Source of the DNA: Escherichia coli
GTDB taxonomy: Bacteria > Pseudomonadota > Gammaproteobacteria > Enterobacterales > Enterobacteriaceae
Direction: 5' to 3' (one strand)
Assembly (NCBI RefSeq): GCF_003334765.1
Contig: NZ_QOWT01000021.1
DNA: 64,000 nucleotides
Below are positions 1 to 27,823 of the stretch, in pieces. Within the stretch, counting starts at the first letter, position 1; the number at the start of each line of letters is the position of its first letter. The notes under the pieces are model-generated. The model was not told the DNA's origin. It ran no database searches and saw only the letters and a list, made by a program, of their open reading frames with translations. Position numbers and translations under genes: made by a program.

Positions 1-49
1 CGCGAGGCATCGTCTTAACGAGGCACCGAGGCGTCGCATTCTTCAGATG

Positions 50-95
50 GTTCAACCCTTAAGTTAGCGCTTATGGGGAAACATCCCCATATACT
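50..95 (+). promoter_or_regulatory. lon heat-shock promoter region; CCCCATAT (sigma32 -10-like) at 85-92 inside a GGGG-N6-CCCC element at 75-88
   Basis: Motif read directly about 85 nt upstream of the lon ATG; matches sigma32 -10 consensus CCCCATnT. The -35 element was not placed confidently. Confidence 0.5.
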
Positions 96-175
96 GACGT
101 ACATGTTAATAGATGGCGTGAAGCACAGTCGTGTCATCTGATTACCTGGCGGAAATTAAACTAAGAGAGAGCTCT

Positions 176-2530
176 ATGAATCCTGAGCGTTCTGAACGCA
201 TTGAAATCCCCGTATTGCCGCTGCGCGATGTGGTGGTTTATCCGCACATGGTCATCCCCTTATTTGTCGGGCGGGAAAAATCTATCCGTTGTCTGGAAGC
301 GGCGATGGACCATGATAAAAAAATTATGCTGGTCGCGCAGAAAGAAGCTTCAACGGATGAGCCGGGTGTAAACGATCTTTTCACCGTCGGGACCGTGGCC
401 TCTATATTGCAGATGCTGAAACTGCCTGACGGCACCGTCAAAGTGCTGGTCGAGGGGTTACAGCGCGCGCGTATTTCTGCGCTCTCTGACAATGGCGAAC
501 ACTTTTCTGCGAAGGCGGAGTATCTGGAGTCGCCGACCATTGATGAGCGGGAACAGGAAGTGCTGGTGCGTACTGCAATCAGCCAGTTCGAAGGCTACAT
601 CAAGCTGAACAAAAAAATCCCACCAGAAGTGCTGACGTCGCTGAATAGCATCGACGATCCGGCGCGTCTGGCGGATACCATTGCTGCACATATGCCGCTG
701 AAACTGGCTGACAAACAGTCTGTTCTGGAGATGTCCGACGTTAACGAACGTCTGGAATATCTGATGGCAATGATGGAATCGGAAATCGATCTGCTGCAGG
801 TTGAGAAACGCATTCGCAACCGCGTTAAAAAGCAGATGGAGAAATCCCAGCGTGAGTACTATCTGAACGAGCAAATGAAAGCTATTCAGAAAGAACTCGG
901 TGAAATGGACGACGCGCCGGACGAAAACGAAGCCCTGAAGCGCAAAATCGACGCGGCGAAGATGCCGAAAGAGGCAAAAGAGAAAGCGGAAGCAGAGTTG
1001 CAGAAGCTGAAAATGATGTCTCCGATGTCGGCAGAAGCGACCGTAGTGCGTGGTTATATCGACTGGATGGTACAGGTGCCGTGGAATGCGCGTAGCAAGG
1101 TCAAAAAAGACCTGCGTCAGGCGCAGGAAATCCTTGATACCGACCATTATGGTCTGGAGCGCGTGAAAGATCGAATCCTTGAGTATCTTGCGGTTCAAAG
1201 CCGTGTCAACAAAATCAAGGGACCGATCCTCTGCCTGGTAGGGCCGCCGGGGGTAGGTAAAACCTCTCTTGGTCAGTCCATTGCCAAAGCCACCGGGCGT
1301 AAATATGTCCGTATGGCGCTGGGCGGCGTGCGTGATGAAGCGGAAATCCGTGGTCACCGCCGTACTTACATCGGTTCTATGCCGGGTAAACTGATCCAGA
1401 AAATGGCGAAAGTGGGCGTGAAAAACCCGCTGTTCCTGCTCGATGAGATCGACAAAATGTCTTCTGACATGCGTGGCGATCCGGCCTCTGCACTGCTTGA
1501 AGTGCTGGATCCAGAGCAGAACGTAGCGTTCAGCGACCACTACCTGGAAGTGGATTACGATCTCAGCGACGTGATGTTTGTCGCGACGTCGAACTCCATG
1601 AACATTCCGGCACCGCTGCTGGATCGTATGGAAGTGATTCGCCTCTCCGGTTATACCGAAGATGAAAAACTGAACATCGCCAAACGTCACCTGCTGCCGA
1701 AGCAGATTGAACGTAATGCACTGAAAAAAGGTGAGCTGACCGTCGACGATAGCGCCATTATCGGCATTATTCGTTACTACACCCGTGAGGCGGGCGTGCG
1801 TGGTCTGGAGCGTGAAATCTCCAAACTGTGTCGCAAAGCGGTTAAGCAGTTACTGCTCGATAAGTCATTAAAACATATCGAAATTAACGGCGATAACCTG
1901 CATGACTATCTCGGTGTTCAGCGTTTCGACTATGGTCGCGCGGATAACGAAAACCGTGTCGGTCAGGTAACCGGTCTGGCGTGGACGGAAGTGGGCGGTG
2001 ACTTGCTGACCATTGAAACCGCATGTGTTCCGGGTAAAGGCAAACTGACCTATACCGGTTCGCTCGGCGAAGTGATGCAGGAGTCCATTCAGGCGGCGTT
2101 AACGGTGGTTCGTGCGCGTGCGGAAAAACTGGGGATCAACCCTGATTTTTACGAAAAACGTGACATCCACGTCCACGTACCGGAAGGTGCGACGCCGAAA
2201 GATGGTCCGAGTGCCGGTATTGCTATGTGCACCGCGCTGGTTTCTTGCCTGACCGGTAACCCGGTTCGTGCCGATGTGGCAATGACCGGTGAGATCACTC
2301 TGCGTGGTCAGGTACTGCCGATCGGTGGTTTGAAAGAAAAACTCCTGGCAGCGCATCGCGGCGGGATTAAAACAGTGCTAATTCCGTTCGAAAATAAACG
2401 CGATCTGGAAGAGATTCCTGACAACGTAATTGCCGATCTGGACATTCATCCTGTGAAGCGCATTGAGGAAGTTCTGACTCTGGCGCTGCAAAATGAACCG
2501 TCTGGTATGCAGGTTGTGACTGCAAAATAG
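176..2530 (+). CDS. lon: Lon ATP-dependent protease (784 aa)
   Basis: Track ORF 131-2530 begins at a GTG; the known N-terminus [18 protein letters not shown] starts at ATG 176. Walker [10 protein letters not shown] and catalytic Ser motif PKDGPSAG are present. Confidence 0.97.
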
Positions 2531-8699: not shown

Positions 8700-9518
8700 A
8701 TGGCTCGTCTGGCAGCATTTGATATGGATGGCACTTTATTGATGCCTGACCATCATTTAGGTGAGAAAACCCTCTCTACTTTGGCGCGACTGCGTGAACG
8801 CGACATTACCCTCACTTTTGCCACGGGGCGTCATGCGCTGGAGATGCAGCATATTCTCGGGGCGCTATCGCTGGATGCGTATTTGATTACCGGCAACGGA
8901 ACGCGCGTGCATTCTCTGGAAGGTGAACTTTTACATCGTGATGATTTACCTGCGGATGTCGCGGAGCTGGTGCTGTATCAGCAATGGGATACCCGAGCCA
9001 GCATGCATATCTTCAATGACGACGGTTGGTTTACCGGGAAAGAGATCCCTGCGTTGTTGCAGGCATTTGTCTATAGCGGTTTTCGTTATCAGATAATCGA
9101 TGTCAAAAAAATGCCACTCGGCAGCGTCACCAAGATCTGCTTCTGTGGCGATCACGACGATCTTACACGCTTGCAGATCCAGCTATACGAAGCATTAGGC
9201 GAGCGTGCACATTTGTGTTTTTCCGCCACGGATTGCCTCGAAGTGCTGCCGGTGGGCTGCAATAAAGGCGCTGCATTGACGGTGCTGACCCAACATTTAG
9301 GTTTATCGTTGCGCGATTGCATGGCCTTTGGTGATGCGATGAACGATCGCGAAATGTTAGTCAGCGTCGGTAGCGGATTTATTATGGGCAATGCGATGCC
9401 GCAACTGCGCGCGGAGCTCCCGCATTTACCGGTGATTGGACATTGCCGAAATCAGGCTGTCTCTCACTATTTGACGCACTGGCTGGACTATCCACATCTA
9501 CCTTATTCCCCCGAATAA
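8700..9518 (+). CDS. cof: HAD-family HMP-PP phosphatase Cof (272 aa)
   Basis: HAD motif I FDMDGTLL near the N-terminus; start set at ATG 8700 ([14 protein letters not shown]); the track used GTG 8688. Confidence 0.92.
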
Positions 9519-22541: not shown

Positions 22542-25694
<3,153 letters not shown>

Positions 25695-25713: not shown

Positions 25714-26907
25714 TTAAGACTTGGACTGTTCAGGCTGAGCACCGCTTGCGGCTTGCTGGTTATTATCAGCGGTAACTTCTTGTGCTTTTACCTGGACACC
25801 AGGACGCACTTTCTGCAGCCCACTTATTACTACGCGATCGCCTGCTTTCAGACCTTCTGTCACCAGCCACTTATCGCCAATAGCCTGGCTTGCAACGATC
25901 GGACGGGTTTCCACTTTGTCATCCGCGCCAACTACCAGTACGGTGGCATCGCCACGCGGCGTACGGGTTACGCCCTGTTGCGGGACTAAAATAGCGTTTG
26001 GATTAAGCCCTTCTTCCAGACGTGCGCGCACGAACATACCCGGCAGCAGAGTGTGATCCGGGTTCGGGAAGATAGCGCGTAGGGTGATAGACCCAGTGGT
26101 CTGATCAACGGTAACGTCAGAGAATTCCAGCGTACCGTCCTGCGGGAACTTAATGCCGTCACTGGTGATCAGTGACACTTTGGCTTTGCCGTTCTCTTGT
26201 TTCAGCGTGCCATTCGCCAGTTCCTGTTTCAGGCGCAGGAAGTCGTTGCTGGACTGGGTCACATCAACGTAGATCGGATCAAGTTGCTGCACGGTTGCCA
26301 GCGCAGTCGCCTGACCGTTCTGTACCAATGCGCCTTCCGTCACGTTCGACTTACCAATGCGACCGCTAATCGGAGAGGTGACTTTGGTGTAAGCCAGATT
26401 GATCCGCGCAGTTTCAACGGCAGCTTTCGCCGCAGTTACCGCAGCATTCGCCTGTTGCGCATCAGCCAGAGCCTGATCGTACTCTTGCTTACTGATGTAC
26501 TGAGTACCGAGCAGTTTCTGATAACGATTCACCGTCAATTGCGCGATATTGGCTGCAGCCTGGGCTTTCGCCAGATCACCTTTCGCACTGTCGTATGTCG
26601 CCTGATAGGTCGCAGGATCAATCTGATAGAGAGAGACACCTGCTTCGATGTCGCTACCTTCTTTGAAATTACGCTTCAGGATAATCCCGCTAACTTGAGG
26701 ACGAACTTCTGCGATCCGGTAGGCACTGGTGCGACCCGGAAGCTCGGTTGTGATCTGCAGAGGTTCAGTTTTGACTGTTACTACGCCAACGGCGGGCATC
26801 TGCTGGCCACCTTGTTGGGCCTGTTTGTCGTCACATCCTGTTAGGGCTAAGCTGCCTGAGAGCATCAGAACGACCGCCAGAGGCGTAAACCCTCTGTTTT
26901 TGTTCAT
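25714..26907 (-). CDS. acrA: RND efflux periplasmic adaptor lipoprotein AcrA (397 aa)
   Basis: Start set at ATG 26905-26907 (MNKNRGFTPLAVVLMLSGSLALTGC, lipobox). Confidence 0.97.
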   Translation of the reverse strand: MNKNRGFTPLAVVLMLSGSLALTGCDDKQAQQGGQQMPAVGVVTVKTEPLQITTELPGRTSAYRIAEVRPQVSGIILKRNFKEGSDIEAGVSLYQIDPATYQATYDSAKGDLAKAQAAANIAQLTVNRYQKLLGTQYISKQEYDQALADAQQANAAVTAAKAAVETARINLAYTKVTSPISGRIGKSNVTEGALVQNGQATALATVQQLDPIYVDVTQSSNDFLRLKQELANGTLKQENGKAKVSLITSDGIKFPQDGTLEFSDVTVDQTTGSITLRAIFPNPDHTLLPGMFVRARLEEGLNPNAILVPQQGVTRTPRGDATVLVVGADDKVETRPIVASQAIGDKWLVTEGLKAGDRVVISGLQKVRPGVQVKAQEVTADNNQQAASGAQPEQSKS

Positions 26908-26996
26908 ATGTAAACCTCGAGTGTCCGATTTCAAATTGGTCAATGGTCAAAAGTTAATAAACCCATTGCTGCGTTTATATTATCGTCGTGCTATGG

Positions 26997-27020
26997 TACA
27001 TACATTCACAAATGTATGTA
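26997..27020. promoter_or_regulatory. AcrR operator, 24-bp palindrome TACATACATTCACAAATGTATGTA, in the divergent acrAB/acrR promoter region
   Basis: Palindrome read directly between acrA and acrR; matches the known AcrR binding site. Confidence 0.9.
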
Positions 27021-27048
27021 AATCTAACGCCTGTAAATTCACGAACAT

Positions 27049-27696
27049 ATGGCACGAAAAACCAAACAAGAAGCGCAAGAAACGCGCCAACACATCCTCG
27101 ATGTGGCTCTACGTCTTTTCTCACAGCAGGGGGTATCATCCACCTCGCTGGGCGAGATTGCAAAAGCAGCTGGCGTTACGCGCGGTGCAATCTACTGGCA
27201 TTTTAAAGACAAGTCGGATTTGTTCAGTGAGATCTGGGAACTGTCAGAATCCAATATTGGTGAACTAGAGCTTGAGTATCAGGCAAAATTCCCTGGCGAT
27301 CCACTCTCAGTATTAAGAGAGATATTAATTCATGTTCTTGAATCCACGGTGACAGAAGAACGGCGTCGATTATTGATGGAGATTATATTCCACAAATGCG
27401 AATTTGTCGGAGAAATGGCTGTTGTGCAACAGGCACAACGTAATCTCTGTCTGGAAAGTTATGACCGTATAGAACAAACGTTAAAACATTGTATTGAAGC
27501 GAAAATGTTGCCTGCGGATTTAATGACGCGTCGCGCAGCAATTATTATGCGCGGCTATATTTCCGGCCTGATGGAAAACTGGCTCTTTGCCCCGCAATCT
27601 TTTGATCTTAAAAAAGAAGCCCGCGATTACGTTGCCATCTTACTGGAGATGTATCTCCTGTGCCCCACGCTTCGTAATCCTGCCACTAACGAATAA
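27049..27696 (+). CDS. acrR: TetR-family repressor AcrR (215 aa)
   Basis: Tet[34 protein letters not shown]; divergent from acrAB. Confidence 0.97.
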
Positions 27697-27823
27697 CCCT
27701 GAATCTGACTCCAGGATTTTTCCTGGACATTTTCGTCGTTGCTATTCTGGTTCACTGCGTCGTGATATTCTTGCGGTTTGACTTTTTCAGGTCGTTCTTC
27801 AGGTTCAGAAACCTTCATTCATC

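Follow-up and report, generated by a model that had tools for sequence, protein, structure and literature searches.

The 24-bp inverted repeat at positions 26997-27020 of the window (the whole 64-kb stretch of DNA analysed here) is, with a probability that we put at roughly 0.96, the known operator of the local TetR-family repressor AcrR, placed within the 141-bp region between acrR and acrAB. It is an operator that was already known, present here in its commonest allelic state, and the observation, though correct, is unremarkable. E. coli has AcrAB-TolC as its main intrinsic multidrug efflux pump, and resistance goes up when repression by AcrR is lost. The genes of the locus, the region between them and the operator are as follows.

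22542-25691, minus strand: acrB, RND permease, 1049 aa (open reading frame, annotation)
25714-26907, minus strand: acrA, periplasmic adaptor of the AcrAB-TolC pump, 397 aa from the ATG at 26907 (open reading frame, annotation)
26908-27048, no strand: divergent acrA/acrR intergenic control region, 141 bp (open reading frames, annotation, PMC9769551)
26997-27020, no strand: AcrR/EnvR operator, 24-bp inverted repeat (sequence, repeat finder, published site, arm conservation)
27049-27696, plus strand: acrR, TetR-family repressor, 215 aa (open reading frame, annotation, PDB, NCBIfam, Pfam)
27094-27234, plus strand: TetR_N (helix-turn-helix) of AcrR, residues 16-62 (Pfam)
27298-27654, plus strand: TetR_C_2 of AcrR, residues 84-202 (Pfam)

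Identity of the operator and its regulator

Direct reading of the sequence gives TACATACATTCACAAATGTATGTA for 26997-27020, in which a repeat finder recognises two arms of 10 nt, TACATACATT (26997-27006) and AATGTATGTA (27011-27020), that are 100% complementary and separated by a gap of 4 nt. The centre, CACA (27007-27010), has no self-complementarity, so the element, though its 10-nt arms are perfect, is an inverted repeat of 24 bp that falls short of being a perfect palindrome. This agrees with the initial annotation, which had described a palindrome with perfect arms some 30 bp upstream of the acrR ATG; the distance is 28 nt. The span that it had singled out, 26908-27048, is exactly the intergenic region between the divergent genes, the acrA ATG occupying 26907-26905 on the minus strand and the acrR ATG starting at 27049, and a length of 141 bp is likewise stated for the acrR/acrA intergenic region in PMC9769551.

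That the site belongs to AcrR, also proposed at the outset, is borne out by the site, its neighbours and the regulator alike. Positions 26997-27020 are the exact reverse complement of the published 24-bp AcrR site, 5'-TACATACATTTGTGAATGTATGTA, which PMC9769551 and PMC10597343 both give as the AcrR-binding site of the acrAB promoter (PMC10597343 also prints the opposite strand, as it reads here). In the passages that give the site, both papers credit it to Su, Rutherford & Yu 2007, and a review illustrates TetR-family binding sites with the operator sequence. Annotation names the neighbouring genes acrA, acrB and acrR, and the regulator adjoining the operator is AcrR: a TetR-family protein with an N-terminal helix-turn-helix and a MAATS-type C-terminal domain, matched over residues 1-215 by PDB entries 2QOP/3BCG (E 1.6e-141) and scoring 419 bits with the NCBIfam AcrR equivalog NF007949, the cutoff of which is 271.

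Positions 26700-27800 are 100% identical to E. coli K-12 MG1655, whose annotation has acrB, acrA, acrR and mscK arranged and oriented as expected. When the whole window is compared base by base with MG1655, acrB, acrA, the intergenic region and acrR show zero differences. The K-12 acrR-acrAB system has an identical 24-bp operator (given on the opposite strand), an identical AcrR protein and the same divergent layout over 141 bp, and differences from the MG1655 assembly lie outside acrRAB only, consisting of nine SNPs and an IS186 upstream of lon. Every element of the operator locus here is thus in the wild-type K-12 state, which upholds the earlier statement that the operator and a full-length, 215-aa acrR are intact.

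As for function, purified AcrR retards a 179-bp acrAB promoter fragment in an electrophoretic mobility shift assay, and the shift is blocked by ethidium, putrescine, cadaverine and spermidine. In a ΔacrR background acrABp-lacZ is strongly induced, and its induction by ethidium requires acrR. Since this literature concerns an identical sequence, binding of AcrR and its release by ligands would by analogy be expected at the operator described here.

Might the repeat instead be a chance, functionless feature of AT-rich intergenic DNA? The AT-richness of the region is all that speaks for such an origin. The pattern TACATACATTNNNNAATGTATGTA, with its centre left free, occurs once in the 64 kb, even when three mismatches are allowed, and in none of 100 dinucleotide-preserving shuffles of the window. 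The site is, in addition, near-invariant in more than 5,380 genomes, is found at 19 of 22 independent loci and on a plasmid beside diverged regulators (see below), and has published binding. Shuffles, conservation, recurrence and binding together refute a chance origin, which we regard as vanishingly improbable.

Conservation of the arms across species

We scanned one genome per species with an anchor made of the degenerate first nine codons of acrR (MARKTKQEA), in which the operator has no part, and recovered 22 loci. Salmonella, Klebsiella and others have different residues 8-9, which keeps the set small and the main enterobacterial genera out of it; the comparison with Salmonella and Yersinia is drawn from the literature.

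The arm pattern, ACATACAT-N6 (or N2)-ATGTATGT, is present with at most two mismatches at 19 of the 22 loci, always just upstream of an acrA-like gene; the expectation from shuffles is about 0.35 matches per 199 kb. Loci with the arms range from Escherichia to Burkholderiales and Desulfobulbus-like genomes, plus one plasmid. Among the three negative loci, two are without the relevant region, leaving one true exception, a Desulfobulbus MAG (L010) in which no recognisable palindrome is found upstream of the acrA-like gene (1850-2300, best site with five mismatches); this genome has an acrA/acrB-like pair and an AcrR-like regulator with the invariant recognition helix. The initial annotation had held that nothing in sequence could refute the reading, which was too pessimistic: conservation at orthologous loci could have gone against it, and the result, 19 of 22, is favourable.

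No change in the arms, or in their distance of 28 nt from the ATG, is seen among close relatives (Escherichia albertii, E. whittamii, two further Escherichia species and three Pseudocitrobacter genomes), and the single variable position of the 24-mer in Escherichia and Pseudocitrobacter is the third base of the centre (C or T, window 27009). The whole intergenic region is 97% conserved in these genomes, so alignment of close relatives alone cannot single out the operator.

In Burkholderiales (Roseateles, Paucibacter, Pelomonas and relatives), regulators that are 39-44% identical to AcrR adjoin divergent acrA/acrB-like genes, and ACATACAT-N6-ATGTATGT precedes the regulator ATG by 18-23 nt. Two Desulfobulbus-like genomes have a regulator that is not divergent, and there too the palindrome is found just upstream of the acrA-like gene (L004 3665-3682 and L014 3494-3515). 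When the otherwise unalignable upstream regions of distant loci are aligned, mean column identity is 49% and the left arm is the sole invariant run. At orthologous and homologous loci, then, the operator is more conserved than the DNA that surrounds it.

AcrR-like regulators are 31-44% identical to AcrR overall and 47-63% identical in their DNA-binding domains, and the recognition-helix residues T44, R45, G46, A47, Y49, W50, H51, F52 and K55 are invariant in all 13 regulators compared. Protein recognition of the two arms predicts just such a pattern, with arms and reading helix conserved and the centre free. Set beside the AcrR system, the cassettes of Burkholderiales, Motiliproteus, Desulfobulbus-like MAGs and plasmid pKTa005_1 share the arms and the helix TRGA(I/V)YWHF, whereas the centre is free, the spacing is mostly 6 nt but 2 nt in L004 and L015, and the regulator is non-divergent in L004 and L014.

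The spacing of 2 nt, and not 6, is found at L004 3665-3682 (Desulfobulbus-like MAG) and L015 1611-1628 (Motiliproteus), where the site reads ACATACAT-GA/TC-ATGTATGT; it equals the 6-nt spacing minus one 4-nt ACAT unit. The existence of two arm-spacing registers hints at a register-tolerant or two-dimer mode of binding. The arms have an (ACAT)2 periodicity, and the E. coli site also fits registers of 2, 6 and 10 nt at two mismatches or fewer.

The plasmid locus is an acrRAB-like cassette on pKTa005_1, a 162-kb plasmid of E. coli (NZ_CP147085.1, about 76262-76285; L027 5001-5024). In the cassette, a TetR regulator (38% identity with AcrR) is joined by an adaptor gene with a frameshift and by an RND permease. 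The site of this cassette, TACATACATTCATAAATGTATGTA, shares its arms with the chromosomal operator and precedes the regulator by 34 nt; the DNA around it is unrelated.

These comparisons also bear on the possibility that the palindrome acts as an RNA hairpin in the acrR leader, controlling the stability or translation of acrR mRNA, in which 26986-26994 might pair with the start-codon region (27049-27057) and so close the hairpin. Plus-strand RNA 26988-27060 does fold into a 10-bp hairpin inside an outer stem that covers the AUG (-16.3 kcal/mol, z = -2.43, with 2 of 200 shuffles equal or better), and an outer inverted repeat, TCGTGCTAT (26986-26994) and ATGGCACGA (27049-27057), 89% complementary, flanks the operator. 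Any DNA palindrome yields an RNA hairpin, however, so that a fold of this kind is expected, and the minus strand also folds (z = -1.6). Close relatives are invariant here and so offer no covariation in favour of a hairpin, and at distant loci the arms are kept as sequence, which argues for protein recognition and not for pairing alone. We judge the folding result unconvincing and an RNA role highly improbable, and retain the reading of the palindrome as the AcrR operator.

Variation within E. coli

Positions 26700-27800 are matched in 5,424 of 5,426 complete E. coli genomes. The 141-bp intergenic region has at least 99% identity in 5,420 of 5,424 genomes. The operator with 12 nt on either side is identical in 5,284 of 5,424 genomes (140 differ, only 20 of them with the centre variant CATA), while with 3 nt on either side 5,383 of 5,425 complete E. 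coli records carry it without change and 41 have one mismatch. The centre variant CATA, also the normal state in other Escherichia species, was found by a separate search in 20 E. coli genomes; up to 20 of the 42 records (of 5,425) that deviate within 3 nt of the operator could be this variant, the two counts coming from separate searches.

With fewer than 1% of records varying, operator mutation does not look like a common route to resistance. The earlier statement that operator and acrR mutations are such a route is better supported for acrR, where disruptions are documented, than for the operator. IS1 lies inside acrR in at least four complete E. coli genomes (H1-H4), IS186 in acrR is cited in literature on lon and IS186, and acrR point mutants are documented in PMC11642870.

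Two peculiarities of individual records were noticed in passing. In NZ_CP148461.1 the match to the intergenic region stops after query position 120 (about window 27027), where an IS481-family transposase is annotated, the break coming after the operator and before the acrR start. Chromosomal lon, or acrR-acrA intergenic DNA, turns up in a few records that are typed as plasmids (NZ_CP137697.1, 128,814 bp, and 2-3 other places); these could be mis-assigned replicons or large chromosomal fragments.

A site shared with EnvR

EnvR (AcrS) is a paralogous TetR repressor encoded beside acrEF. The palindrome could on this basis be mainly an EnvR operator, with EnvR binding more tightly and serving to toggle between acrAB and acrEF, and with AcrR as a minor occupant. 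Work on Salmonella (PMC9780535) lends this some weight: EnvR binds the acrAB promoter, its binding is lost when five positions are mutated in each arm of the 24-bp palindrome, its affinity is reported to be higher than that of AcrR, and its overexpression brings acrAB transcription down to 0.05-fold. AcrR also scores 179 bits with the NCBIfam model for the acrEF/envCD regulator, pointing to close paralogy between AcrR and EnvR. On the other hand, the same fragment is bound by AcrR, acrABp-lacZ is derepressed in ΔacrR, envR expression is negligible under laboratory conditions (PMC9780535), and the palindrome accompanies acrR-like genes at loci without a second regulator. Binding by EnvR supplements the AcrR reading and does not exclude AcrR, and we consider it possible but rather doubtful that EnvR is the main occupant. 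By analogy with Salmonella, 26997-27020 is an operator common to AcrR and EnvR.

The Salmonella Typhimurium acrAB palindrome (PMC9780535) resembles the site described here in being 24 bp long, in lying in a 141-bp acrR/acrA intergenic region and in its arm-dependent binding. It differs in being the ortholog in another species, and EnvR binding is shown there, whereas a literature search found none for E. coli. In the same study, deletion of acrR was without significant change in MIC, and the unchanged MICs suggest that AcrR is a modulator and not a master switch.

Promoters and proposed mechanism

The regulatory elements that surround the operator, all but the first found by a consensus scan, are listed below.

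26924-26929, minus strand: TCGGAC in the acrA leader (GGA motif)
26954-26983, plus strand: candidate acrR promoter, TTAATA, 16-18 nt spacer, TATATT/TATTAT (consensus scan)
26993-27022, minus strand: candidate acrAB core promoter, -35 TTTACA at 27022-27017, 18-nt spacer, -10 TACCAT at 26998-26993 (consensus scan)

The exact promoter hexamers and start sites are inferred; a literature search found no mapped transcription starts for acrAB or acrR and returned predicted elements in figures, without coordinates. The candidate acrAB promoter matches the consensus at 9 of 12 positions, all of its positions are invariant in Escherichia and Pseudocitrobacter, and the operator fills the gap between its two hexamers and overlaps both, an arrangement that fits repression by occlusion. 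A Yersinia prediction puts the -35 element about 15 nt away from that of our scan, and the Yersinia AcrR motif lies at -52 to -29 from the acrR ATG, offsets identical to those in the window.

The -35-like hexamer of the candidate acrR promoter differs among relatives and remains -35-like. Were this promoter the one used, the operator would lie just downstream of the acrR start, as a roadblock; were an alternative element, TAAATT at 27034-27039, used in its place, the right arm would become part of the -35 region. Autoregulation of acrR is mentioned in PMC9769551, in a passage that cites Ma 1996.

A degenerate copy of the operator core, TAAATTCACGAACATATG, is found 33 nt downstream, at 27030-27053 (core 27034-27051), with a 78% match to 27001-27018 and agreement with the full operator at 14 of 24 positions. 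Published 'predicted AcrR sites' in other promoters have a mismatch level equal to that of this copy. Placed between operator and marbox, it might serve as a weak auxiliary site, or be no more than the -10 region of acrR.

No recognisable Shine-Dalgarno sequence is found for acrR in 27034-27048. The -10-like TAAATT stops 9 nt before the acrR ATG, and in Burkholderiales homologues (L017, L018, L019 and L009) TAAAAT stands 6-9 nt upstream of the regulator ATG. The lack of a Shine-Dalgarno sequence, together with -10-like elements so near the ATG, suggests that the mRNAs of AcrR-like regulators may be leaderless or near-leaderless.

Two other candidates were rejected on inspection by eye: CpxR-type GTAAA repeats, whose spacing is wrong (15 nt from start to start), and a second TTTACA hexamer as a promoter, which is without a -10 partner. 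In the acrA leader, TCGGAC exactly matches the sequence reported as a secondary CsrA site of acrAB in Salmonella (PMC5727465), and the primary Salmonella CsrA motif, TAAGGAC, is absent from the part of the leader inspected by eye.

In the mechanism that we propose, the N-terminal helix-turn-helix of AcrR would grip both arms, and the bound protein would stop RNA polymerase at the acrAB promoter, the best -35/-10 match of which brackets the operator, and would also restrain the transcription of its own gene. Ligands, ethidium and polyamines among them, would occupy the C-terminal domain of AcrR and bring about its release from the DNA. The paralogue EnvR/AcrS would work through the same operator, and MarA, SoxS or Rob would turn up the acrAB promoter from a marbox at 27049-27068.

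The geometry of the operator may say something about how it is bound. The centres of the 8-nt conserved arm cores are 14 bp apart, and the operator, at 24 bp, far exceeds a 15-bp tetO-type site in length, so that there could be room for two dimers. This geometry is compatible with the QacR type, and would resemble QacR more than tetO; a literature search found no statement on the dimer stoichiometry of AcrR at its operator. QacR IR1 of Staphylococcus aureus, bound by a dimer of dimers, is likewise a long inverted repeat, and QacR, too, is a multidrug-binding repressor of an efflux gene, but the sequence of IR1 is unrelated to that of the AcrR operator. The next-best PDB matches after AcrR are TtgR of Pseudomonas putida (E 2e-44) and MtrR of Neisseria gonorrhoeae (E 2e-32), both of them local repressors of RND pumps like AcrR, but with different operators; MtrR is described as a global regulator without an obvious consensus site.

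The marbox, the lon promoter and pump expression

An activator site coincides with the start of acrR. The marbox consensus, AYnGCACnnWnnRYYAAAYn, reportedly from Martin et al. 1999, has a single match in the 64-kb window:

27049-27068, plus strand: marbox ATGGCACGAAAAACCAAACA, MarA/SoxS/Rob activator site, the first 20 nt of acrR (PMC11642870, consensus search)

According to a 2024 preprint (PMC11642870), a marbox within the first 20 coding nucleotides of acrR is needed for full up-regulation of acrAB, and full acrAB-dependent resistance needs inactivation of AcrR with the marbox kept. As the marbox lies within the start of acrR, full deletions of acrR also lose the activator site. The initial annotation, right on the AcrR operator, was silent on this marbox, on EnvR at the same palindrome and on the rarity of operator variants.

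The level of these activators may be altered in the source strain. The window is colinear with MG1655, and its first 74 nt are unrelated to the native clpX-lon spacer: it opens inside the right end of an IS186/IS421-family element, with the junction at 74/75 and the lon coding sequence at 176-2530 on the plus strand. The few genomes with a complete match to window positions 1-700 have an IS4-like, IS421-family (IS186) transposase between clpX and lon. The junctions place the insertion at GGGGAAACATCC in the promoter of lon, a known IS186 hotspot, with GTTGAAT on one side and CCCCATAT on the other. In E. coli B strains the match sets in only at position 53, the terminal repeat, which suggests an IS186 at the same hotspot in the opposite orientation.

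According to the literature, IS186 at the lon hotspot reduces Lon, gives MarA and SoxS greater stability and increases AcrAB-TolC. The source strain may thus, judging from sequence and literature together, have elevated efflux via the marbox despite a wild-type operator and acrR; given IS186 in the lon promoter and activation at the marbox, an intact operator and an intact acrR are no guarantee of basal pump expression.

The nine SNPs relative to the MG1655 assembly NZ_CP032667.1 are at 8747, 10032, 12521, 16060, 16976, 17049, 36833, 39712 and 59925, and coordinate mapping places them in cof, decR, mdlB, tesB, ybaY (two), htpG, hemH and ybbO. This is more than would be expected between MG1655 isolates, and the source may therefore be a close relative of K-12.

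Implications for efflux regulation

A record of a wild-type operator and acrR is useful bookkeeping and brings no new biology. Since operators vary in so few records, screening for resistance should focus on acrR, marR, soxR, lon and IS insertions. A wider reading, which we advance tentatively and hold to be unlikely, is that the arms ACATACAT/ATGTATGT and the helix TRGA(I/V)YWHF form a fixed recognition code of a wide AcrR-like clade, so that foreign repressors could cross-repress acrAB. The clade that might share this code would span gamma- and betaproteobacteria, Desulfobulbus-like genomes and at least one E. coli plasmid. If this is true, an AcrR-like repressor encoded on a plasmid, such as that of pKTa005_1, could cross-repress chromosomal acrAB as EnvR does, and gain of a plasmid-borne RND cassette would rewire intrinsic efflux.
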